A stretch of DNA of 64,000 nt from an uncultured virus (IMG/VR IMGVR_UViG_3300043774_001557) (lineage: Duplodnaviria > Heunggongvirae > Uroviricota > Caudoviricetes). The notes under the pieces are model-generated. The model did not search any database. It was not told the DNA's origin and saw nothing but the letters and a program-made list of their open reading frames with translations. The translations under genes were made by a program, and so were the position numbers. Location: IMG/VR virus record IMGVR_UViG_3300043774_001557. The stretch is one strand, 5' to 3'. Of this stretch, positions 1 to 44,617 are shown one piece after another; position 1 is the first letter of the stretch, and each line of letters starts with the position of its first letter.

Positions 1-1800
1 ACCTTCGCCTACACCTCCACCGCCATGCCGATGCTGACCGGCACGCTGATCACCGCCACGGGTTTCCTGCCGGTGGGGCTGGCGCGTTCGACGGTGGGCG
101 AATACACCTTCGGCATCTTTGCGGTGACGGCGCTGGCACTGGTGCTGTCGTGGTTTGCGGCGGTGGTGTTCGTGCCATACCTGGGCTATCTGCTGCTGCA
201 TACAAAGTCGCACGTGGGCGACGGCGGTCACCATGAGCTGTTCGACACGCCGTTCTACAACCGCTTCCGCGGTTGGGTGAACTGGTGCGTGGAGTATCGC
301 AAGACGGTGATCGTGATCACGCTGGCGGCCTTTGTGCTGGGCGTGTTCGGCTTCAAATACGTGGAGAAGCAGTTCTTCCCGGATTCCAGCCGGCCCGAGC
401 TGATGGTCGAGCTGTGGCTGCCGGAGGGCTCCAGCTTCAGCCAGACCGAGGCCGAGGCCAAGCGCTTTGAAGCGCTGATGCGCCAGGAAAAGAACGTCGA
501 GAGCGTGACGCTGTTCGTCGGCTCCGGCGCGCCGCGCTTCTATTTGCCGCTGGACCAGATCCTGCCGCAGACCAATGTGGCGCAGGCCATCGTGATGCCG
601 ACCTCGCTAGAGGCCCGCGAGGGCGTGCGGGAGCACCTCATCGGTTTGTTGAAATCCCAATTCCCGCAGTTGCGTGGCCGCGTGAAGCTGCTGCCGAACG
701 GGCCGCCGGTGGCGTATCCGGTGCAGTTCCGCGTGATGGGCCCGGACATCGGCGGCGTGCGCAAGATCGCTGACCAGGTCAAGGCCATCATGGTGGCCAA
801 CCCCAACACCGTGGGCGTGAACGACAACTGGAACGAGAACGTCAAGGTGCTGCGCCTGGACATCGACCAGGACAAGGCGCGCGCGCTGGGCGTGTCGACC
901 GGCTCGATCGCGCAGGTCACGCAGACGGTGATGACCGGCGCGCCCATCGCCCAGTACCGTGATGGCGACAAGCTGCTCGATATCGTGATGCGCCCGCAGG
1001 AAGACGAGCGCAATACGCTGGCGGCGCTGGAGACCGTGCAGGTGCCAACGGCCAGCGGCCGCGTGGTGCCGCTCGCGCAAGTGGCGCGCATCGGCTTCAA
1101 GTGGGAGCCCGGCGTGATCTGGCGCGAGAACCGCGACTACGGCATCACCGTGCAGTCCGACGTGGTGGACGGCGTGCAGGGCCCGACCGTGACGGCGCAG
1201 ATCAACCCGCTGCTCGACAAGATTCGCGCGCAGATGCCGCCGGACTACCAGATCAAGATTGCCGGCGCGGAGGAGGAGAGCGCTAACGCCAGCGCCTCCA
1301 TTGCCGCGCAGATGCCGCTGTGCATTTTTATCATCTTCACGCTGCTGATGCTCCAGCTGCACAGTTTCTCGCGCGCCATGCTGGTGTTCCTGACCGGCCC
1401 GCTCGGGTTGATCGGTGCGGCGACGACGCTGTTGTTGCTCCGCGCGCCGATGGGCTTTGTCGCGCAGCTCGGCATTACCGCGCTCATCGGGATGATCATC
1501 CGCAACTCGGTCATCCTGGTCGACCAGATCGAGCAGGACGTAGCGACCGGCGTACCGACCTGGACCGCCATCGTCGAGGCCGCCGTGCGGCGGTTCCGTC
1601 CCATCATCCTGACCGCGGCGGCGGCGGTGCTGGCGATGATCCCGCTGTCGCGCAGCGGCTTCTGGGGCCCGATGGCGGCGGCCATCATGGGTGGCCTGAT
1701 CATCGCCACGGTGCTGACGCTGCTGTTCCTGCCGGCGCTGTATGCGGCGTGGTTCCGCGTCAAGCGGCCTGAAGCCGAAGCCGCCGCGCCAACGGCCTGA
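1..1800 (+). CDS. RND efflux permease (AcrB/AcrD/AcrF family), 5'-truncated by window edge; host gene
   Basis: Multiple TM segments, RND motifs (GMIIRNSVILVD, RFRPIILT, FWGPMA); frame open from base 1. Confidence 0.95.
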   Translation, partial: TFAYTSTAMPMLTGTLITATGFLPVGLARSTVGEYTFGIFAVTALALVLSWFAAVVFVPYLGYLLLHTKSHVGDGGHHELFDTPFYNRFRGWVNWCVEYRKTVIVITLAAFVLGVFGFKYVEKQFFPDSSRPELMVELWLPEGSSFSQTEAEAKRFEALMRQEKNVESVTLFVGSGAPRFYLPLDQILPQTNVAQAIVMPTSLEAREGVREHLIGLLKSQFPQLRGRVKLLPNGPPVAYPVQFRVMGPDIGGVRKIADQVKAIMVANPNTVGVNDNWNENVKVLRLDIDQDKARALGVSTGSIAQVTQTVMTGAPIAQYRDGDKLLDIVMRPQEDERNTLAALETVQVPTASGRVVPLAQVARIGFKWEPGVIWRENRDYGITVQSDVVDGVQGPTVTAQINPLLDKIRAQMPPDYQIKIAGAEEESANASASIAAQMPLCIFIIFTLLMLQLHSFSRAMLVFLTGPLGLIGAATTLLLLRAPMGFVAQLGITALIGMIIRNSVILVDQIEQDVATGVPTWTAIVEAAVRRFRPIILTAAAAVLAMIPLSRSGFWGPMAAAIMGGLIIATVLTLLFLPALYAAWFRVKRPEAEAAAPTA

Positions 1801-2174: not shown

Positions 2175-3179
2175 ATGGCATACATCACCAAATCGGGAAC
2201 AGGCTGGCGCGCTCAGGTGAAGGTAAAGGGCGAGCGCGACAGTCGGGTATTCGACACAAAAGCCGAAGCCCATGCCTGGGGGGCGAAGCGCGAGACGGAG
2301 ATGCGCTCCATCGAAGGCGGGATGGGCAGCAAAACCCATACGATCGGCAATGTGCTTGATACCTACCGGCAAAAGGTGAGCCCGAAGAAGCGGGGCGCGC
2401 GCTGGGAAATGCTCCGCCTTGACCTGATCGGCCGGAAGGAGATCGATGGCAAGCTCTTCCGTGACATCCGTTTGGCCGACCTGAAGCCGCGGCACATCAC
2501 GGCCTGGCGTGATGCCAGAGAGCGGGAGGTGGCTGGCTCGTCAGTCTCCCGGGAGATGTCGCTGCTCTCGCATGCGCTCAAGGTGGCGCGCGACGAATGG
2601 GGATGGTTGCTTACCGATCCCATGAAGACGGTTGGCCGGCCAGCCGACAATCCACCGCGCGAGCGCCGCATCACAGACACTGAAATTGAGCGAATCACGC
2701 AGGCGCTCGGATTCCAAGAGGAGCTACCTGTGGAATTGCCGGTTCAACGGGTGGCTGTGGCATTTCTGTTCGCCATTGAGACAGCCATGCGCTCGGGGGA
2801 AATTCTAGGCCTTACCATCCACACCGTGGATAAGGCGGCGCGTGTGGCACATTTGCCGTTGACTAAGAACGGGGGCGCTCGAGACGTCCCGCTATCCACG
2901 CGCGCCCTCGAACTGCTCGAACTGCTGCCCGCAGTAGAGGAGGGGATGCCGCTTTTCAACTTGGGCGACCAGAGCAGAGATGCGCTTTTCCGGAAAGGTC
3001 GAGACCGTTCCGGCATCAAGAACCTCACATTCCACGACACACGCCACGAAGCCATCACGCGGCTGGCAAAGAAGCTCCAGCCGCTGGCCTTGGCCCGAAT
3101 GACGGGGCACACGGACCTCAATGAATTGATGACGTACTACAACGAGTCGGCGGCGGATATTGCCGCCCAGCTCGGCTAG
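2175..3179 (+). CDS. int: Tyrosine recombinase / phage integrase
   Basis: ETAMRSGEI (R), TKNG (K), FHDTRH (HxxR), TGH and YY catalytic residues. Confidence 0.95.
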   Translation: MAYITKSGTGWRAQVKVKGERDSRVFDTKAEAHAWGAKRETEMRSIEGGMGSKTHTIGNVLDTYRQKVSPKKRGARWEMLRLDLIGRKEIDGKLFRDIRLADLKPRHITAWRDAREREVAGSSVSREMSLLSHALKVARDEWGWLLTDPMKTVGRPADNPPRERRITDTEIERITQALGFQEELPVELPVQRVAVAFLFAIETAMRSGEILGLTIHTVDKAARVAHLPLTKNGGARDVPLSTRALELLELLPAVEEGMPLFNLGDQSRDALFRKGRDRSGIKNLTFHDTRHEAITRLAKKLQPLALARMTGHTDLNELMTYYNESAADIAAQLG

Positions 3180-6477: not shown

Positions 6478-7336
6478 TTTCGTGAGCCCAGCTATCAATG
6501 GTGTTTTGTTGAGCAACGGTGAGTTTTTCGCCCTTCGACTCGATGAACTTGATCATCGCGGCAGGCGTCTTTCGGCCAGATTTCACGACCTCACGCCATG
6601 AGTCCTTGTTTGCATCGAATTTCGTTTGGTCGTAGAACCGTGGCTCGGCGTCCTTTCCGGTGCCACGCGTGGCGGCGGCTTGCCCACCTTGGCTCCCAGG
6701 CTGATCGTCGGCGCCTCCACCATCATCGTCATCACCTTTCGTGGATTTCCCAATGGCCGCGAGCAGGCTGTATCGTTCGAGATAGGTAACGGCGCTCCCG
6801 GCTTGCTGCATGACATTCTTCTTGCCGCTTGTGTCGGGCGGGCCTTCCATCCGGACCCTCTTCGAGTGACCGTCGACATGTGTGACGATGCAATCGACGA
6901 TAATCTTTCCCAACTCTTGCTGAATGTCCCAGTCATAGGTCAAACCATGGCGCGCCATGACGAGGCCAACGGCGTCTTCGATGTCGGAAAGTTCTGCGTG
7001 TTTGTAGCCGACGAAGTCACCCTCTCGGGTCGTGTATCCGACCTGCTTTCGCTTGAAGATCGGTGGGCACTCGGCCTTGAATGCAGCCATCGCGCGCCGA
7101 TAGGTCTTCTTCGCTTCATTGGCCTCCCACTCCATCTGCATCTTCATCAGACGCTCAAGACGATCAAGGTCCGCGCCGCTCTGAATGGCGAAGCGCAAAA
7201 GATCAACCGGCGTCGTAAGCGATGCGGCATTGGGTTGCTGGGCAATAGCCGATTGCTGCTGAACAACCGGCGGCTTTGTGGTCGGCGCTTCTGCGGCCTC
7301 GATGTCGATCACATCGGTCATCGTTGCGGTGCTCAT
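6470..7336 (-). CDS. erf: ERF-family single-strand annealing protein
   Basis: YKHAEL, QQAGSAVTYLERYSL, DDDG motifs. Confidence 0.9.
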   Translation of the reverse strand: MSTATMTDVIDIEAAEAPTTKPPVVQQQSAIAQQPNAASLTTPVDLLRFAIQSGADLDRLERLMKMQMEWEANEAKKTYRRAMAAFKAECPPIFKRKQVGYTTREGDFVGYKHAELSDIEDAVGLVMARHGLTYDWDIQQELGKIIVDCIVTHVDGHSKRVRMEGPPDTSGKKNVMQQAGSAVTYLERYSLLAAIGKSTKGDDDDGGGADDQPGSQGGQAAATRGTGKDAEPRFYDQTKFDANKDSWREVVKSGRKTPAAMIKFIESKGEKLTVAQQNTIDSWAHEND

Positions 7337-7602
7337 GCTTGCTCCAGATTGGCCGACTCAATGCGGGTGTAGGGGAACTTGTCCGGGAACGGCTTGATGT
7401 GCTTGTAGAAGTACGAGCCGATCGACTCGGCGCCCTTGAGCGCGGCGAAGTCATCGGGCGTGAAGTTGCTGTAGTGGTAGACGCTGCCCGGCTTGTCGCT
7501 TTTGCTCTTGAACTGGATCGCGAGCGTCTGCGATTCGGGGTCGTAGCCGATGGCGTCGATTTGGCTGGACTCGACGGAATCCATGGTGATCTGCTGGTTC
7601 AT
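7333..7602 (-). CDS. KTSC domain protein
   Basis: VESSQIDAIGYD...L.IQF...YHY...A.SIGSYF..HIK. Confidence 0.9.
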   Translation of the reverse strand: MNQQITMDSVESSQIDAIGYDPESQTLAIQFKSKSDKPGSVYHYSNFTPDDFAALKGAESIGSYFYKHIKPFPDKFPYTRIESANLEQA

Positions 7603-7680
7603 CTCTTCCTCCTGGTTGTTTGCGAATGTCTTAGCATGCGTGAACATTAGCACGTAGCTAATACATTAGCAAGAACCGGA

Positions 7681-7707
7681 AAGAAAAAAGCGCCACGGCG
7701 GGCGCTT
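7681..7707 (-). terminator. Intrinsic terminator ending the acp/ncRNA transcript
   Basis: AAGCGCC/GGCGCTT hairpin followed by T-run on minus strand. Confidence 0.65.
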
Positions 7708-7894
7708 GTCGGCAGACTATTTCTCTCGGTCTGCCAGCGGAGTCTTATCGCAGCTCTGCGGAGGACTTGTCGCAACCTCGGCGAGGGACTTCCCCTGCGT
7801 CTGGCCTCATGGCCATATGAAGCGGATTTTTCCGCTATTGGGCGCCGCAGCGCCCTGAATGCATGTAGGTAAAGGGCTCATCATGTCAGCGTAC

Positions 7895-8038
7895 CTAGCC
7901 GTACTCCATCTGCAGCGGCCTATATGCCTGGTCTAGTCGGCGTGGCATCTGCGCTCGAAAGCTCCGCCACGGCCATGCTATCCCCGCTGGAGCCCACAGC
8001 AGAGGAATCAACCAGAGAAGCAAGAACCAAACGATCAA
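7895..8038 (-). CDS. 47-aa hydrophobic membrane peptide
   Basis: AGGAG SD then TTG start; MIVWFLLLWLIPLLWAPAGIAWPW. Confidence 0.45.
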   Translation of the reverse strand: MIVWFLLLWLIPLLWAPAGIAWPWRSFRAQMPRRLDQAYRPLQMEYG

Positions 8039-8161
8039 TCGCTGCTCCTGTAAGTGTGGCTGGTGACGGGTTCCAGCGTCCGCCCAATCGTTGCGGCCGG
8101 TTTGTGCCCTCGGCTCGGCTTCCTCGGATGATTGAGGTGCGTACTGCGGTGGCGTGTAATC

Positions 8162-8232
8162 TGGCGCCCCTGCGCGGAATCGAACCGCGCTACTGCACGA
8201 ATAGACAAGTTCGCCGTAGTCCAACCCGGGGC
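8162..8232 (-). ncRNA. tRNA-like RNA (acceptor + T-arm + CCA, no D-arm)
   Basis: GCCCCGG/CAGGGGC-G-CCA; CGCGG-TTCGATT-CCGCG; central hairpin CTAC..GCGAA/TTCGT..GTAG. Confidence 0.7.
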
Positions 8233-8240
8233 ATGATTGT

Positions 8241-8760
8241 TGAGGGGCCGGACGCTACCCCGGCATTGTGTTTCGACTTCATCCTTGGCACCCCAAGGTA
8301 GGGCGGTCTGCGGCCACCTGCCTGCCTTAGTCCGGTTGGATTTCTGTGGTCCGGCTGATCCCACTGTGCGCCTCTCCGATTCCTAGCGCATTCCCTCACG
8401 TCATGGCGCCTGGGCGCGACATCCAGGTAACGCGTCTTCGCCATGCGTGAAGGTTGAGTGTTGCTGGGCTACTTTCACCGCTACGTACTGAGTTGGCCGA
8501 TGGCCCGGTCTTTAACGGGGATGGGTACTAGCCACCCGGATTCAGTCATGCAGAAACACTCAAGGATGGTGGCTTGACGCACTGGCTCTGCACTCAGCGT
8601 CACGCTGGCAATAGCAGGAGCACGCGAAGCCGCCATGCTTGAGAGTGCTGGGTTTAAGCTATAACCCTTCCCGGATATCCAGCCCAGCGAAGCTCTCCGG
8701 TGTAGTCGGTCTAAGGCTCCCCGCTGACTGGGCCGACACCCTCAGCGGATCAATGCTCTC
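8241..8760 (-). ncRNA. Array 1 of abutting structured RNA modules
   Basis: Five consecutive stem-closed domains: 8641-8760, 8560-8642, 8454-8563, 8393-8453, 8241-8398; no credible ORF. Confidence 0.6.
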
Positions 8761-8819
8761 TCGCAGGTATTCGTGCGGCGTCTCACCGCAGCGGCTTATC
8801 TAGCGGCCGTCGCTTCGGG

Positions 8820-9062
8820 TTAAACCTGTGCCGCGACGCGCCCGCTCACGTAGTCGATGGCTTGCTGTACGGTCTCGATCTTCTCGGCATCGTCGTCCGA
8901 GATTTCGAAGCCGAATTCATCTTCGATGGCCATAACCAGCTCAACAGCATCGAGAGAGTCAGCGCCAAGATCAGTGATGATGTTCTGATCCCCTTTCACG
9001 TCGTCGGTCTCGATGGCAAATTGCTGTGCGATGGTCTGCTTGACACGCTCTTCGATGCTCAT
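8820..9062 (-). CDS. acpP: Phage-encoded acyl carrier protein
   Basis: [32 protein letters not shown] with intact DSL serine; AAGGAG SD. Confidence 0.95.
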
Positions 9063-9127
9063 AGCTATCTCCTTATGCGAATATATTAGCAGCCACTGCG
9101 GCATGATTCAAGGGGAATTTGTTTGGG

Positions 9128-10393
9128 CTAGGCGGCTTGGTCGGCGAACAGATCAGGTTGCTTCGCTGCTTCGGTGACAAGCAATTCAACCCGGCTCAAT
9201 TCGTAGTCAATTCTTGCCCTGGCGATCTCGACGTATTCCGGCGTCATGTCGATGCCGATGAATCGGAAGCCTTCACGCATCGCAGCCTTGCCGGTGCTGC
9301 CCGATCCCATGAATGGGTCTAGCACGGTACCGCCGGGTGGCGTCACCAATCGGCACAGATAGGCCATCAAGTCAGTCGGCTTCACGGTCGGATGAAAGTT
9401 TCCGTTGCGCTCTTGCCAATCTGCCGTTTCGCGATCGCGCATCGTCGCTTCTGTCTCGACTGCAGGCGTATCGCTGCCACCGATGCCTTCGTTGCGATCG
9501 GCGCGGGATGCTTTGGCGCAGTAGAAGAAGCGAGCCGCTGATTCGCTCGCATCGATGCGCGGCTCGGCAGACTCCCGGCGCCCAATAAAGCCGCCATACA
9601 TGACTGGCCCGCTAAATCCATTCGCGGTCGGTTCAGTGCCGCGCACCTTGGCCATCTGGCCCGGAGCGTCCGGGAACGCCTCGAGTACTTCCGGCGAGCC
9701 GTCGTGAATGATGTTGGCGGGCCACCTGCCGGCTTTCATCTGCCCGCGAAACTCGACATCCTGTTTCCAGTTGCCATCCTTGACGACGGATGCCCCGGGC
9801 GCGAACCGCTTGACGGTGTATTCTCCGCCGATCGCGTCGTCAGCATGAACGCGACATCCATCGATATTGATCGCGCCGGTACCGTACGCCGCGACGTTCT
9901 CCGCGACCGTGCCGATGAGTGGTTTGCGGGCCATGCAAATCGGCTCGGTCGCGGGCTTGAGTGCGGTACCCCATCCCTCCCACTCGCCATCTAGATTCCG
10001 CGATTTCGGAAAGCCACTTCCGTAGTGCCATGGCACCATGTCGCGGATCTCGAATCCGGCATCCTCGATCGCGCAAGTCATGCGGTGATAGGTCCGGGTT
10101 GCGGCAAACGCCAGCAGATGACCGCCCGGCTTGAGCACTCGCAGGCATTCGGCCCACAGCTCGATGCGGTGCGCAATGTCGCCCCCGTCCCAAACCTTGC
10201 CCATAAATCCCTTGTCGCCGATCCGGTGCCGACCGTGCGGCATTTCCGGATTGTTCTTGCGGGCGTGGCCACCGCGCGAAACCTGCGTCAGGTGATAGGG
10301 TGGATCGGTGACGATGGAATCTACGCTGGCGTCGCCTATGCTGCGCATGATCTCCAGGCAGTCGCCCAGATGGGTCGTGTAGCGCTCACTCAT
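9128..10393 (-). CDS. N6-adenine/N4-cytosine DNA methyltransferase (beta class)
   Basis: TDPPY, HPTVKP, VLDPFMGSGSTG. Confidence 0.93.
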   Translation of the reverse strand: MSERYTTHLGDCLEIMRSIGDASVDSIVTDPPYHLTQVSRGGHARKNNPEMPHGRHRIGDKGFMGKVWDGGDIAHRIELWAECLRVLKPGGHLLAFAATRTYHRMTCAIEDAGFEIRDMVPWHYGSGFPKSRNLDGEWEGWGTALKPATEPICMARKPLIGTVAENVAAYGTGAINIDGCRVHADDAIGGEYTVKRFAPGASVVKDGNWKQDVEFRGQMKAGRWPANIIHDGSPEVLEAFPDAPGQMAKVRGTEPTANGFSGPVMYGGFIGRRESAEPRIDASESAARFFYCAKASRADRNEGIGGSDTPAVETEATMRDRETADWQERNGNFHPTVKPTDLMAYLCRLVTPPGGTVLDPFMGSGSTGKAAMREGFRFIGIDMTPEYVEIARARIDYELSRVELLVTEAAKQPDLFADQAA

Positions 10394-15689: not shown

Positions 15690-16135
15690 GCAGCGCCTCT
15701 CGCCGCTTTCACAAACGCCTCAACCTTGTCCGTCAGATTGGTCTGGTAGTCGTAGTCCGATCCGGAGTATTCGAAGTCGGGCTCATCGATCATGCGATCA
15801 ATCATGTTCAGCTCAATGCTCTGCCGCGCCTTCTGGCTGATGAGATGCTGAATCTTCGGGTGGCGCATATTCGGCTCACCCGCCCGCAACGCTCTCACCT
15901 CTGCGATCAGTTCGAGAACGGCGGCCGGTGTGACACCTTCTAGCCACGCCACTACCCCGGGGCCGAACATCAAGTCGGGGTGGTTGTCATGGCGCTGCAC
16001 AACAGGCTCCATCACGCGCGTAGTCGTTCCGCCATCGGATGCCATCACGCGGCGCCAGCTATTGCTGGTCCAGACGTTCCATGTGTCAGCCGGCGCTTCT
16101 TTGGCGATGCGCTCCAGTTTGTCGAGGTCGATCAT
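15686..16135 (-). CDS. Ead/Ea22-like protein
   Basis: MIDLDKLERIAK...TPAAVLELIAEVRALR. Confidence 0.6.
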   Translation of the reverse strand: MIDLDKLERIAKEAPADTWNVWTSNSWRRVMASDGGTTTRVMEPVVQRHDNHPDLMFGPGVVAWLEGVTPAAVLELIAEVRALRAGEPNMRHPKIQHLISQKARQSIELNMIDRMIDEPDFEYSGSDYDYQTNLTDKVEAFVKAARGAA

Positions 16136-16461
16136 TTCGTTTCCTTCACGGTGATTCCATGCACATGCAGCATCAGCTTTGCCTTGAGGATGAAATCCTT
16201 GGTGCGCACGCCTTTCACGTCCTCGACGATCTGCTTGCCCGCCATGTCGTAGACAAAATCGGCGATGTATTTCACGGCCCGGATCGCTTTTCCGTTGGCG
16301 TCTCGTTGCGCCGGAATCAGGATGTATTCGACCTGGCGGCGCAGATTGCTGATTGAGCGCTGGCGCTGCATCATCAGCAGTTCTTGGTAACGGGCATGTT
16401 CGCGCCTGCTGTCGAATGTGCCGGCCTCGGTCGTGACCTTGACGTTGCGATACTTTCTCAA
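16132..16461 (-). CDS. DUF1064-family PD-(D/E)xK endonuclease
   Basis: KYRN...FDSRRE...YIADFVY...VEDVKG; TTG start. Confidence 0.85.
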   Translation of the reverse strand: MRKYRNVKVTTEAGTFDSRREHARYQELLMMQRQRSISNLRRQVEYILIPAQRDANGKAIRAVKYIADFVYDMAGKQIVEDVKGVRTKDFILKAKLMLHVHGITVKETK

Positions 16462-23592: not shown

Positions 23593-23800
23593 AGCCCCCA
23601 GCCATCAGCAGCTCAGAGAGTATGCAGACGACCTGGAGGCGGGGCGGATCAAGGGGCTCGTCGTCTCTTACGTGAGAGATGACGGGGAAGTGGGATACAA
23701 GCTGATGGGGTCGCTTGCCAAGACGAGCAATCTTGGCAGCGCCATCGGGATCATTGGCGAATTGAAAAGGAGAGTTGAGCTCCTTTTTTCAGGCGCATGA
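23537..23800 (+). CDS. Hypothetical protein in immunity operon
   Basis: Open 87-codon frame following cI. Confidence 0.5.
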   Translation: MQQQAKAKVLPLFQGAANEAPSHQQLREYADDLEAGRIKGLVVSYVRDDGEVGYKLMGSLAKTSNLGSAIGIIGELKRRVELLFSGA

Positions 23801-23822
23801 TGCAAATACATTTGCAGAATGC

Positions 23823-23931
23823 TTGACTATGTGCGCCGTATGAACTAGGATTTGTGTAAGTTAGAGGTTGCTTTGCCAGTAGCCACGAGCATTCCCCAAG
23901 AGAGCCCGACAACGTTCGGGCTCTTATTGTT
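23823..23931 (+). promoter_or_regulatory. Putative late promoter plus early terminator (pR'/tR'-like)
   Basis: TTGACT-N17-TAGGAT (23823-23851), then AGAGCCCGA/TCGGGCTCT hairpin with T-rich tail. Confidence 0.65.
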
Positions 23932-24302
23932 TCAAGTTCTTAACTTTACCTCCATCCATGCACCAAAGTGTGGCTTTTATGTAGTGGATGCATAAAAGAA
24001 AACCCCACTCTGTGGTGGGGTCGCGTTTCCTCCGCCCGGCGCTGAGCATCCCCGTTCCACGCGACCCCTGCGCCGATTAAGGGGCCGCGCTCAGATTCTT
24101 CTGTTTGAGCCTTTGCGTGCCTGGTGCCATTTGGCGACGAGGCTTAGATGCGCGCGATTCGTCACTGACCATCTCCCAGCCGGGGAATCCGGCGAATCTG
24201 CTAATTAGCTTGCTGATGCGTGCGACTATAGATAAAGCATTAGCATAAAGCAAATATATTCGCCAATTGTGTGGCGCTAAGCACACACTGCCTCAAGCGA
24301 GG

Positions 24303-24981
24303 CGCTTCATCCAATCGCCGAAACTGCGGTCAGCGCCGTTGAACGCGAACACGCTTCGCACGGGTCGCGGCGATTGGATGAGGTGATCGGTTGCGTGCGC
24401 GCGGCCGACATGCTCTAGCCGGTGAGATGGCGAACCCCGGCGAATCTGTGCGCACAGAAGCTGACGGTGCCGGGAGGCACGCCGGAGAACGTAACCGGCT
24501 CCTTCACGCATGACGATCTAGGGCCTGCAATGTGGGGTAGAGCGGGCGGACTTTAGTGATGGCACACCCTAGTCGTCAGCCGTGAGGGACTACCACTTAC
24601 CCGAGAGGTCGGTGCGGCTTGTCCGTCTGGCGCTTGGGGCCCTCGACGATGTGACACCCCGCTAGCTGTGCGTAAGCGCTGGAGCGGTTGAAATGGTTGG
24701 GCCGTTCGCGTCACTGGGGCGGACACGACGCCGAAGGAATAATCGGCCGCTTGGCTGGCGTAACCAGCCTCTTCACTTCTGCCGGTGATGCGTCACAACC
24801 CCGAGGGGCGGCAGACGTGAGGGTGACAGCCCAAACCAACCTTTGATGTCCGTAGCGATCCCAGAACAATCCGCATACGTGCGGGCGCCGGGTAGAGGAC
24901 ATTGCTGCATGGATGCAGCTCCCAAGGTTTGGCCCCACGTAAGCCGTACGGGCTCATTAACCCGGCGCCGTGGTTCCCTCA
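24303..24981 (+). ncRNA. Array 2 of alternating hairpin and cassette RNA modules
   Basis: Hairpins 24303-24385, 24500-24589, 24770-24823; cassettes 24379-24506, 24582-24776, 24818-24981. Confidence 0.65.
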
Positions 24982-24989
24982 ATCCATTT

Positions 24990-25585
24990 GGATCGGTATG
25001 CGCTAAGGACGCGTCGGCTTAAGAATGAAATCGCCTGCTTCCATTCTTGACCTGAGCAAGAGAACCGTAACCAAGGTCATGAAGCGGCTGAACCTCGGCT
25101 GCTCAAACTGCGATTGGAATCTTGCTACCTGCGACATTCATCACATTCAGCCAAAGAGCAGGGGTGGAACTAATGATCACTCGAACCTTACTTATGTTTG
25201 CCCGAATTGCCATCGTCTGGCCCATGCTGGACTGCTGACAGCATTTGTCACCCTTGATCGGCAGATTGGCGATCGATGGAAGGACTGCTATTTCCCCGAG
25301 CGCGCAAAACGACAGTCTCGACCTTCTGACCATGCCAACCTCGGCAAATACATGGCCGAGAAGCGAGTGGTTGCAGACGAGCGAGCGCGAGTGGCCCTAG
25401 AAAGGCTAAAGACAAGTGGAATCGAATTCGGCAAGCGCGGATGGGTCAAGCGTGCATCGGTCGTCATTGGCATATCTCCGCAAAAGGTCGGTTGGTGGTT
25501 TAAGAGGTATGCCCCAGAATTCCTAGAAGTTCACGATCGCTAAGTTGCTTCGGCTGGCTTGGTTCGATGCCAAGACGGTCCACCA
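24990..25585 (+). pseudogene. Split tRNA-like gene enclosing an HNH ORF
   Basis: 5' half GGATCGG..D-arm..TCGGCTT (24990-25020); 3' half GCTAAGTTGC..CTTGG-TTCGATG-CCAAG-ACGGTCC-A-CCA (25539-25585). Confidence 0.65.
25025..25543 (+). CDS. HNH endonuclease
   Basis: CSNC...DIHHIQPKSRGG.N...NL..VCPNCHR..H. Confidence 0.9.
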   Translation: MKSPASILDLSKRTVTKVMKRLNLGCSNCDWNLATCDIHHIQPKSRGGTNDHSNLTYVCPNCHRLAHAGLLTAFVTLDRQIGDRWKDCYFPERAKRQSRPSDHANLGKYMAEKRVVADERARVALERLKTSGIEFGKRGWVKRASVVIGISPQKVGWWFKRYAPEFLEVHDR

Positions 25586-25591
25586 GAACAC

Positions 25592-25682
25592 GGAAGAGTT
25601 AGCCGAATCGGCATAGCGGCAGCGGTCTTGAAAACCGAAGGCCCGAAAGGGTGTGTGAGTTCGAGTCCCACCTCTTCCGCCA
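25592..25682 (+). tRNA. tRNA-Ser(TGA), phage-encoded
   Basis: GGAAGAG/CTCTTCC-G-CCA; loop CT-TGA-AA; long variable arm. Confidence 0.92.
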
Positions 25683-25686
25683 GTTT

Positions 25687-25776
25687 GGAAGGTTGCCAGA
25701 GAGGCAATGGGTCGGCTTGCTAAGCCGTAGCCGGTGCGCGAGCGCCGCGTGCGTTCGATCCGCACACCTTCCGCCA
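25687..25776 (+). tRNA. tRNA-Ser(GCT), phage-encoded
   Basis: GGAAGGT/ACCTTCC-G-CCA; loop TT-GCT-AA; long variable arm. Confidence 0.9.
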
Positions 25777-26004
25777 TCCTCCCCTGCGCATCCGCGCATT
25801 TGGCCCGCGCTGAACGGGCCTTTTCTTACACGATATGCCCCGGCCGCAACGCACCACACCGGATGACGAGATCATCCCCAACAACGGTTGGGCATGCAGC
25901 GTCCTACTGCTCCTGTATGACCAGGACGGCGAAGACGAGGTGGTCGGGGAGATTGGGCGGGAGGGGTGGTTGCACACGGAGGCCGGCATGGGCGGCGACG
26001 CATC

Positions 26005-31543: not shown

Positions 31544-34209
<2,666 letters not shown>

Positions 34210-41027: not shown

Positions 41028-41034
41028 CGCTTAT

Positions 41035-41117
41035 CCGCGCCTAGGGTAGCTCCCGAAATCTGTTCCTTGGCAGGCTGGCGCGGGTTCTCAACAAGGATAT
41101 GACCATCAAGGAAAGTC
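41035..41117 (+). promoter_or_regulatory. Three-way-junction leader RNA, copy 2
   Basis: CCGCGCC-TAGG..CCGAAA-hairpin(loop TCCTTG)-GGCGCGG; CAAGGA at 41092 and 41107. Confidence 0.6.
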
Positions 41118-43771: not shown

Positions 43772-44617
43772 ATGGCTGCCCAAGATGCTAGCACATTCTG
43801 TGCTGAGTTCTCCTATGCGCGACGCTGCGGCAAGTTCTATACCTACATCCATCTAACTGGCGACAAGGCCGGCGATCCCGGGCGCGTGTTCTATGTGGGG
43901 AAGGGGCAGAAAACCAGGGCCTGGATGACAAACAGGACGAAATACTGGAAGCACGTGGCAGATAAACACGGGTTTTCAGTCCAGATATGCGCCTACTGGG
44001 ATTCGGAATCCGATGCGTTCTTGCATGAGAGGCTTTTAATTTCGAGTTTTCGGGATATGGGCGTCGCTCTGTCCAATTTGACGGATGGAGGAGAAGGATC
44101 TTCAGGCATAGTTCCATCAGCGGAAAAGCGCGCAAAGATCAGCAAGGCAAGAATGGGGCAAAAGCAGTCTGATGAAGTTTTGGCAAAAATCAGCGCCTCC
44201 TTGACCGGAAGAATTTTCTCGGCGGAGCATAGAGAAAAAATCGCGAAAGCGAACCGAGGAAAGATTCGCGACCCGGAAATTGGGAAAAAGATAAGCGCTG
44301 CCAAGAAGGGAAAGAGGCAGTCCCCTGAATCTGTGGCTAGGCGTGCAGCAACGCAAAAAGCTCTATACGCCACCCCGGAATACAAAAAGATTCTCAGCGC
44401 CGCCTCTATAGGTCGATCCCATACCGAAGAGGCGCGTGCGAAGATTGGCGATGCGCACAGGGGGAAGGTGCTATCTCCGGAGACGCGAAAGAAGATTAGC
44501 GATGCCCGAACGGGAAAGGCCCTCACACCCGAGCACAGGCTAAAGATAAGCGAAGGTCTTAGGGCGAGAAGATCCGCAAACCAGCCGGAATTGAACCTCG
44601 ATAGTCATGTCGACTGA
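43772..44617 (+). CDS. Free-standing GIY-YIG-like homing endonuclease with NUMOD3 repeats
   Basis: FYTYIH..FYVGKG..R, NLTDGGEG, repeated S.E.R.KIS.A..G. Confidence 0.85.
   Translation: MAAQDASTFCAEFSYARRCGKFYTYIHLTGDKAGDPGRVFYVGKGQKTRAWMTNRTKYWKHVADKHGFSVQICAYWDSESDAFLHERLLISSFRDMGVALSNLTDGGEGSSGIVPSAEKRAKISKARMGQKQSDEVLAKISASLTGRIFSAEHREKIAKANRGKIRDPEIGKKISAAKKGKRQSPESVARRAATQKALYATPEYKKILSAASIGRSHTEEARAKIGDAHRGKVLSPETRKKISDARTGKALTPEHRLKISEGLRARRSANQPELNLDSHVD

Follow-up and report, generated by a model that had tools for sequence, protein, structure and literature searches.

Introduction

Two non-coding stretches in the genome of an uncultured tailed phage (Caudoviricetes; IMG/VR record IMGVR_UViG_3300043774_001557), analysed here as a window of 64,000 nucleotides, raise the question of whether the repeated stems that they contain belong to a genuine family of RNAs and, if so, what such RNAs could be for. 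The first array lies on the minus strand (8655-8162) and comprises two hairpins (H1 and H2), two stem-closed domains and a tRNA-like element; the second lies on the plus strand (24292-24985), with an HNH gene and two tRNA-Ser genes downstream of it. An earlier note on the window had described the first array as an alternation of hairpins and 'cassettes', had seen the same grammar in the second, and had proposed that conserved stems surround variable cargo. The elements described for the first array are all present at their places on the minus strand, and the two arrays do share one grammar.

Both stretches are built from the same conserved RNA blocks, which recur unannotated in many phages and look like a real, undescribed family. 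The blocks comprise two modules, a hairpin (H) and a stem-closed domain (D), which are conserved, covarying and strand-specific, and which occur together with tRNA or tRNA-like genes, from a promoter-like region to a terminator, in two operons.

A conserved hairpin family

The two arrays are connected by a 16-nucleotide word that opens hairpin H2. It has exactly two copies in the window, at 8453-8438 on the minus strand and at 24501-24516 on the plus strand, where about 6e-5 exact matches would be expected by chance from the length of the pattern; at up to three mismatches, six matches were found against 2.27 expected. As had been noted before, the two copies share the closing CGUGAGGG but have unrelated interiors, and a pairwise alignment of the two arrays yields short common blocks only. 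In IMG/VR the word occurs at 61 loci, about the chance level for its length. The bare 16-mer was therefore rejected as a family marker, the closing motif being needed as well. GTGAGGG lies 38-102 nucleotides downstream of the word at 16 of the 61 loci, which represent 14 other phages and two copies of the window phage, and the interiors are unrelated among these 16 hairpins also.

A hairpin model, R1, was built from 20 copies and finds four copies in the window. Two belong to the training set, namely the consensus hairpin of the second array (24491-24596, plus strand; 69.2 bits) and H2 (8463-8385, hairpin proper 8453-8393, minus strand; 47.1 bits). The other two lie outside it: H1 (8655-8549, minus strand; 29.6 bits, expectation value (E) 2e-5) and a divergent hairpin of the form CUCUUCAC...GUGAGGG (24760-24831, plus strand; 15.9 bits, E 0.04). 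A scan with the 3′ half returned 81 loci, 80 of which were searched, and R1 picked 13 further contigs from them, three with identical hairpins. With a gapped two-sided pattern, 55 IMG/VR contigs with 45 distinct sequences were collected, and the family is present in at least that number of contigs.

Members consist of an outer helix (YYUCACG/CGUGARG), a 2 × 2 internal loop and an inner helix (UGGCGAUUG/CAGUCGCCA), with 30-110 nucleotides of interior between the conserved ends, and the window hairpins have this architecture. H2 is laid out as CCUUCACG-CAUGGCGA ... CGCCAUGA-CGUGAGGG, its strand CCUUCACGCAUGGCGA (8453-8438) pairing with CGCCAUGACGUGAGGG (8408-8393), and a near-identical copy of it is found at locus L177. 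In H1, CUCAAGCAUGGCGG (8643-8630) pairs with CCACCAUCCUUGAG (8572-8559), forming an outer stem CUCAAG/CUUGAG and an inner stem AUGGCGGCUU/AAGCCACCAU.

These helices covary. Across 45 copies aligned with MAFFT, 92.6% of cells are paired and 8 of the 17 pairs are changed on both sides, a result reached by none of 500 shuffles. At the one outer-stem position left free by the scan all 45 copies are paired (C-G in 17, U-A in 24 and U-G in 4), and no shuffle of 1000 was as high. In the inner helix, the four positions beyond GGCG/CGCC are paired in 38, 39, 43 and 42 of the 45 copies, and the next two are at chance level (22 and 20); counted from G1, the helix is conserved over 12 positions, of which the second and third are usually mismatched. 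Conservation of the hairpin bases extends over phages of Burkholderiales and of Xanthomonas hosts. The shared stems, whose absence or lack of pairing in homologues the earlier note had named as the outcome that would speak against it, are thus present and paired in other phages, both by the R1 searches and by covariation.

G-U pairs are frequent, occurring at two positions in 31 and 23 of the 45 sequences, and R1 scores much lower on the antisense strand (none against 69.2 bits in the sense direction for one window hairpin, 16.5 against 47.1 for another). The H structure is therefore strand-specific, a property of an RNA and not of a DNA cruciform. Single-sequence folding gave z = -3.32 for H2, -4.18 for H1 and -2.29 for the consensus hairpin of the second array, and -1.35 for the divergent one.

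A conserved stem-closed domain

A second model, R2, was built from seven sequences of the D domain. The layout of this module begins with a closing stem, an AAU linker and a GCGC hairpin, continues with a variable middle, and ends with a GCCGG hairpin directly adjoining the 3′ closing strand. The last 'cassette' of the first array (8399-8238, minus strand; 28.4 bits, E 3e-5, outside the training set) has the same layout: GUGAGGG-AAU-hairpin(UGCGC..GCGCA)-variable part-hairpin(GCCGG..CCGGC)-CCCUCAA, with closing strands GUGAGGG (8399-8393) and CCCCUCAA (8247-8240).

R2 also matches many phage and prophage loci, including those of Cupriavidus, Pandoraea, Xanthomonas and Pseudorhodoferax. The D domain occurs without H in the Ralstonia phages Raharianne, Albius and Hyacinthe, and in the late leader of coliphage HK620, between pR′/qut and the terminator tQ (62.5 bits, E 8e-17). 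The HK620 copy (1096-1189 of locus L244, equivalent to 16095-16188 of the HK620 record) is unannotated. When it was used as a BLAST query, look-alikes were found in 131 cultured-phage records, with a cover of at least 80% in 30 of them and with almost no annotation at the match; these records include Klebsiella (56), Escherichia (35) and Salmonella (13) phages and some Stx2 phages.

The closing stem covaries, in several classes (GAGGG/CCCUC, GAGAGUG/CACUCUC and GAGGGUG/CACCCUC, and GUGGUG/CACCAC in HK620). In a set of 39 rows from a loose pattern, some false ones included, this stem has a mean contiguous pairing of 4.92, whereas shuffling the partners gave 2.40 and, in 1000 shuffles, never more than 3.38. 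The loops of the first and last hairpins are complementary in most members (-6.3 to -8.8 kcal/mol in ten members other than that of the window), and this loop-loop pairing is kept through compensatory changes in L031 (-8.3 vs -3.9 kcal/mol) and L108 (-7.7 vs -2.8 kcal/mol). The middle of D is highly variable (63-173 nucleotides). Conservation of D, again with compensatory changes, extends to enterobacterial phages.

The picture of conserved stems around variable cargo therefore holds for the stems but not for the 'cassettes' as free cargo, since the one at 8399-8238 belongs to the conserved D family, which stands alone in the Ralstonia phages and HK620. What varies is the tips of tRNA-like hairpins, and there is no sign of guide-like cargo.

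No family for H or D was found in Rfam 15, which was searched with the window at gathering thresholds and with both arrays, 28 related loci and HK620 at E up to 1-10, and BLAST in distant mode with the array region gave no match among cultured phages. At L108, a Burkholderiales-2 RNA (Rfam RF02917, 87.9 bits; 424-498, minus strand) lies about 700 nucleotides from the H-D unit, on the opposite strand.

One strand shared by two helices

The two modules are joined through a purine-rich strand, GUGAGGG or variants of it, which serves the outer helix of H as its 3′ strand and the closing helix of D as its 5′ strand. Its upstream and downstream partners both covary with it. Because one strand is common to both, the H outer helix and the D closing helix are mutually exclusive. 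Tandem units have the two pyrimidine strands next to each other (CCCUCAA-CCUUCACG), which shows them to be separate elements.

In the window, the first array forms a chain of such strands. At its start, a UGAGGUG-type strand termed g0 (8744-8737, minus strand; UGAGGGUG) is complementary, by eye, to CACUCUCA at 8647-8640, just before H1. Next, CUCAAG pairs with CUUGAG, and UUGAGUGUU (8563-8555) with AACACUCAA (8462-8454), closing domain S1 (8563-8454, minus strand) by 9 perfectly complementary base pairs. The 5′ strand of S1 overlaps the 3′ strand of H1, and its closing stem differs from the family consensus by compensatory changes (GGG to GUG and CCC to CAC). At the end of the chain, CCUUCACG pairs with CGUGAGGG and UGAGGG with CCCUCA, and the tRNA-like element follows.

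The second array opens with a long hairpin, H0 (24292-24400, plus strand), which begins with CUCAAGCG, has stems at 24305-24320 and 24368-24383, and is unmatched by R1. Its consensus H hairpin runs into a short closed domain, GUGAGGG...CCCUCGA (24582-24648, plus strand; R2 8.0 bits, E 0.058, a weak match), which by eye resembles a 63-nucleotide domain between two tRNA genes in L002. A further domain at 24816-24985 (plus strand) is closed by GUGAGGG (24817-24823) and CCCUCAA (24976-24982), and R2 gave no match to it. R2 scores on this array reach 8.0-8.7 bits only; the weak alignment suggests that the overlap of H and D strands may be present here too.

Links to tRNA genes

The tRNA link of the H family is real and rests on a minority of its members. 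In L002 a tRNA-Gly(GCC) sits inside the H frame, between the leader CUUUCACG and the trailer CGUGAGGG, with the GCAUGGCG/CGCCAUAC helix as its acceptor stem; ARAGORN recognises this tRNA and Rfam matches it at 37.8 bits. A canonical T-arm lies inside 4 of the 45 H copies, and a cloverleaf tRNA was called in one, that of L002.

The last structured part of the first array is the tRNA-like element (8232-8162, minus strand). It has a 7-base-pair acceptor stem (GCCCCGG/CAGGGGC, with one G-A mismatch) and a long anticodon-like arm, lacks the D-arm of a tRNA, and ends with a T-arm, CGCGGUUCGAUUCCGCG (CGCGG-UUCGAUU-CCGCG), followed by an encoded G-CCA. An acceptor stem and a T-arm with a GGUUCGAnUCC-type loop, the structural features of t-elements and mascRNA, are thus both present. 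The best Rfam match is mascRNA-menRNA (RF01684; 23.5 bits against a gathering score of 42.5, E 0.069), a resemblance only. For this element and the window hairpins there was no ARAGORN call and no match to RF00005 at E up to 10, and a cyano_tmRNA fragment over the T-arm (12.5 bits) was the sole match of the GOLLD, ROOL, HEARO or tmRNA type at that threshold.

The tRNA-like element is identical over about 85 nucleotides in L177, where the flanks and the D domain differ, which argues for constraint. An IMG/VR scan with its 3′ half found the window's own phage only. Its place is that of genuine tRNA genes elsewhere, as tRNA-Met genes follow D by 7-8 nucleotides in L002 and L035.

Downstream of the tRNA-like element, a CU-rich stretch, AGUCCUCCGC (7767-7758, minus strand), precedes an intrinsic terminator (7707-7688, minus strand; terminator scan) that ends the first unit. 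The stretch is analogous to GUCUCCUCC, which follows D or a tRNA elsewhere; at several loci the final part of the unit consists of GUCUCCUCC, a small hairpin and a terminator. On the plus strand, the second array is followed by two tRNA-Ser genes (UGA and GCU anticodons; 25592-25776; ARAGORN, Rfam tRNA 32.8 and 46.8 bits), the CU-rich AUCCUCCCC and an intrinsic terminator (25776-25820 in all, the terminator at 25802-25820).

A proposed model of punctuated precursors

The account that we favour, while holding it tentatively, is that both stretches are tRNA-operon-like non-coding units, precursors of structured RNAs punctuated by tRNA-like elements, whose processing and function we infer. The inner 12-position helix of H stands where a tRNA would have its acceptor stem, and stacked acceptor and T stems together have this length of 12; the outer part is a helix of 8-10 base pairs between the 5′ leader and the 3′ trailer of the would-be tRNA. 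The D module, closed by a stem of 6-9 base pairs, has a first and a last hairpin with mostly complementary loops, and a variable middle. Each unit finishes with a tRNA gene or a tRNA-like one, followed by CU-rich sequence and a terminator. The shared purine-rich strand gives the RNA two exclusive registers, one with every H stem closed and the other with every D domain closed. Units would be transcribed as long precursors and cut at the tRNA-like boundaries by host tRNA-processing enzymes, with RNase P acting at the 5′ end of the H minihelix and at that of the tRNA-like element; once the leader of H is gone, the shared strand could pair to close D. The predicted products are stable structured RNAs, together with a CU-rich small RNA that may act in trans. 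That the conserved stems are handles for processing or recognition, as first proposed for this locus, is our best guess from their sequences.

A more ambitious version, which we regard as doubtful, treats the arrays as a two-register RNA 'zipper'. Each pyrimidine strand would pair with either the preceding or the following purine strand, so that the whole chain flips from hairpins throughout to domains throughout or back, driven by removal of the leader at the tRNA-like minihelix. Such a processing-coupled refolding device, distributed from Burkholderiales to Enterobacteria phages, might time the release, or the assembly into higher-order particles, of unnamed tRNA-shaped RNAs.

Several points weigh against the punctuated-precursor account. 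The sequences were largely collected through exact conserved words, so the conservation of those words is partly by construction, and alignment A5 was fitted to the model. Single-sequence folding favours the H register, and for the D domain and the tRNA-like element it gives no more stability than shuffled sequences have (z about 0). The window D domain is a weak and divergent member in which the loop-loop complementarity fails (-1.4 kcal/mol). H has no encoded CCA and most copies are mismatched at acceptor positions 2:71 and 3:70, and descent from a tRNA rests on few members, given that a cloverleaf is called in one copy and a T-arm in four. On transcription, the promoter-like sequence ahead of the first unit (see below) falls under the threshold of the consensus scan, which gave no promoter in 7500-9300, and assembled RNA-library contigs (Logan), from four of 24 runs, cover the array regions patchily and may contain DNA.

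Alternative explanations

In the order of the weight that we give them, the alternatives are a cis-acting switch, unprocessed tRNA mimics, tRNA debris and sites acting at the level of DNA. In the first of these, the H outer stem and the D closing stem would compete, and the outcome would decide whether transcription reads through or stops at the terminator lying between the unit and the KTSC and recombination genes or the packaging genes, in the manner of a riboswitch or of the HK022 put RNAs. We think this improbable, though it has real points in its favour. Two exclusive helices on one strand, with both partners covarying, are the kind of arrangement that it predicts, but the alternative partner lies upstream of the domain and not in an expression platform, and no complementarity of the 3′ closing strand with the terminator stems was seen by eye. 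The aptamer of purine riboswitches has the topology of D, a closing stem and two hairpins with kissing loops, but the highly variable middle of D is a poor fit to a ligand pocket. Downstream of each unit come a terminator and then genes, one unit standing in the early operon and another ahead of the late genes; at L026 and L046, however, a terminator lies upstream of the H-D unit, beyond rescue by the element. An antiterminator like HK022 put was set aside because of these upstream terminators.

Of similarly low probability, in our view, is that the RNAs act unprocessed, as mimics of tRNA that serve as decoys or sponges for host factors recognising acceptor stems or tRNA shape. Candidate targets would be tRNA-targeting defence nucleases, modification enzymes, or a Ro60-type protein such as that bound by YrlA RNAs. 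The tRNA-like inner helix of H, the encoded CCA of the tRNA-like element and the identity of that element between two otherwise diverged loci all agree with mimicry, while a search for tRNA-like Rfam families over the hairpins found no match at E up to 5-10, and a defence target is not identifiable from sequence. The YrlA RNAs (PMC4201824) have long stems around a tRNA-like core and are found in phages, and GGCGAAG in H2 fits the motif GNCGAAN0-1G given there; most H copies, however, carry GGCGAUUG or GGCGACUG in its stead. A Ro60/TROVE gene (PF05731) was found in none of 15 H-bearing viral records, in a search that did match the control genomes, and in none of the 61 open reading frames (ORFs) of the window. 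Ro60 as a partner, and membership of the YrlA family, were consequently rejected, both having been judged by an adjacent Ro60/TROVE gene.

It is quite unlikely that the modules are decaying phage tRNA genes and their spacers, functionless in themselves and kept by linkage. Such an origin would agree with the interleaving of tRNA genes and modules, with the one H copy that is still a weak tRNA and the T-arm kept in four of 45, and with hairpin interiors that are unrelated between phages. Debris would not, however, retain covarying helices, whereas the H bases (in phages of Burkholderiales and Xanthomonas hosts) and D (in enterobacterial phages as well) are conserved with compensatory changes.

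Integron attC core sites read RYYYAAC/GTTRRRY and lie with an adjacent IntI integrase. Elements of DNA, whether attC-like hairpin sites for recombination or miniature inverted-repeat elements ending in 16-base-pair termini, are very improbable. In their favour, the inverted repeats are imperfect and arrayed, and their ends are conserved around centres that vary (30-110 nucleotides). Against them, the G-U pairs make the structure strand-specific, the ends CCUUCACG and CGUGAGGG are unlike the GTTRRRY core, the spacers (60-170 nucleotides) are non-coding, the sole recombinase seen is a prophage integrase 5 kb away, and copies of a mobile element would have common interiors, which the H copies do not. 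Self-cleaving ribozymes (hepatitis delta virus-like, hammerhead and others) were rejected against their consensus structures for a misfit of strand topology and few conserved unpaired nucleotides, and a triple helix of the three complementary strands was dropped because the purine strand contains U.

Genomic setting

By Pfam and tRNA calls, the window is a prophage with its left junction, where an AcrB-type host gene (25-1800) and a tRNA-Leu (1896-1982) are followed by an integrase of prophage type (2175-3179). A leftward early operon encodes YqaJ, ERF, KTSC and ACP-like proteins, two DNA methylases and more genes up to DnaB, and the rightward genes include HNH, the two tRNA-Ser, a DUF2280 protein, large terminase, portal and capsid. 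The nearest record (G001) is identical to the window across the array region and adds no variation.

The gene context of the first array is as first reported. Directly upstream lies an ACP-like ORF with a PP-binding domain (8820-9062, minus strand; PF00550, E 5.7e-15), and downstream of the terminator lies a KTSC-domain ORF (7333-7602, minus strand; PF13619, E 5.3e-20); the interval of 1.1 kb between them holds no convincing ORF on the minus strand. KTSC, which had been offered as a speculative partner of the array, is not supported as one, being present in 3 of the 15 H-bearing viral records and not adjacent to the hairpins (about 32 kb away in one, 5 kb in another). No adjoining acyl-transfer partner gene was seen for the ACP-like gene of this phage early operon. 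A possible small ORF within the interval (7895-8038, minus strand; TTG start behind AGGAG) would encode 47 hydrophobic amino acids ending ...RPLQMEYG and has no PHROG match; by eye, an ORF ending ...RPIQTEYG adjoins the hairpin in L020. All (100%) of the words sampled from 7650-9150 were found in runs of many unrelated studies (sediment, soil, hot spring and groundwater), which would fit a widespread or a contaminant host strain.

A candidate promoter picked by eye (TTGAAT-17 nt-TAATAT; 9111-9083, minus strand) lies ahead of the ACP-like gene, and its tail ATATTCGC is found again at 24252-24263. The same word, AATATATTCGC, precedes both arrays at a -10-like position (24252-24263, plus strand; 9088-9077, minus strand), and may mark a shared type of phage promoter that the sigma-70 consensus scan does not score. 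Also ahead of the second array, a promoter-like TTGACT-17-TAGGAT is followed some 50 nucleotides on by a strong terminator (23823-23932, plus strand), a pair that would yield a short RNA of about 80 nucleotides. In one RNA-library run the contig depth was 589 in the bin 23764-24427 against 0-31 elsewhere, a weak hint only, as such bins are unfit for ranking genes and assembled contigs show no RNA ends.

One early and one late array had been proposed. This describes the window, where the first array stands in the early-left operon (ERF, YqaJ, KTSC and methylases) and the second ahead of the packaging genes, but it is a feature of the window phage and not of the family, because in the 14 other records R1 matches one locus only, save for one weak extra match. 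Outside the window, 4 of 11 tested downstream ORFs are small terminase subunits.

Between the second array and the tRNA genes lies the HNH endonuclease ORF (25025-25543, plus strand; PF01844, E 6.5e-10). An ORF with NUMOD3 motifs, DNA-binding motifs of the homing-endonuclease type, lies within the tail gene block (43772-44614, plus strand) and, with the HNH gene, points to mobile endonuclease genes in the window phage. An int-alpA RNA (Rfam RF02996; 46.6 bits, above the gathering score) lies between two tail-region ORFs at 41034-41096 (plus strand), and a weaker copy is found in L184. The head-morphogenesis block encodes a protein of 618 amino acids with a NUDIX domain (32353-34209, plus strand; E 1.6e-20).

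Significance and comparison with known systems

Phage genomes hold few well-understood non-coding RNAs. The two covarying modules described here recur in phages of several proteobacterial orders, among them the model coliphage HK620, without annotation or an Rfam family. Both their association with tRNA genes and the strict conservation of two helices competing for one strand suggest a mechanism that is open to direct testing in laboratory strains. Should they prove to be processing handles or mimics of tRNA, the modules would be relevant to how phages derive small RNAs from operon leaders, to how they use the host tRNA machinery, and to the purpose of the long early and late operon leaders of lambdoid phages. 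At minimum, R1 and R2 can be used to annotate such regions.

Among known systems, MALAT1/mascRNA (Rfam RF01684) has a tRNA-like structure within a longer transcript, and the t-elements of plant mitochondria are described as tRNA-like punctuation elements (PMC1920247). The arrays are plausibly analogous to both in having a tRNA-like structure in a longer transcript that would mark where processing enzymes make the ends of its neighbours. Unlike these, they belong to phages and add a second conserved domain and exclusive helices, and their cleavage is predicted only.

Stable tRNA-like RNAs known as species 1 and 2 are encoded in the tRNA cluster of phage T4, and the C4 RNA of P1 and P7 is processed by RNase P. 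By analogy, the modules may resemble them as phage RNAs that are not tRNAs, have acceptor-like stems and would come from precursors cut by tRNA-processing enzymes. L060 has a match to C4 (RF01695); it belongs to a distinct element lying some 1.3 kb downstream of H. GOLLD and ROOL, both in Rfam, are large, ornate and unexplained phage RNAs beside tRNA genes; no match to GOLLD, ROOL, HEARO or tmRNA was found in the window at gathering thresholds, and none to GOLLD or ROOL at relaxed thresholds in the arrays or related loci.

The placement of the modules recalls lambdoid leaders, in which StxS and the lambda 6S RNA are small RNAs of the late leader. HK620 carries D in its late leader, and such late-leader and early-left placement matches the two arrays of the window; unlike the window, HK620 has D alone and no H hairpin. 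The Pas small RNAs also belong to lambdoid late leaders, PasA being cut from a longer transcript (bioRxiv 10.64898/2026.05.13.724894). The likeness to Pas, StxS and 6S lies in small RNAs placed between a late regulator and lysis or packaging genes and ending at an intrinsic terminator. No match to the late-leader small RNAs in Rfam (STnc100, AgvB and AsxR) was found, and Pas is likened here by description, its sequences being uncompared.

The tails of the units recall the toxic small RNA of Betaproteobacteria (RF02278; ncS03/05/27/62 of B. cenocepacia), which has a CU-rich unpaired stretch, a hairpin and a terminator (PMC5688073). Tails after D or the tRNAs match it weakly, with 19 bits in the window (25778-25827), 31.6 bits in L166 and 26.1 bits in L024, all below the gathering score of 50; the likeness concerns the 3′ tail only and not H or D, and no match was found in 7400-9200. 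A literal text search of 8.4 million papers and preprints, provisional in that supplements and subscription journals lay outside its scope, found none of six conserved words of the modules. Structured RNA linked to tRNA genes in phages is a known kind, within which the H and D modules and their two-register design appear to be new.

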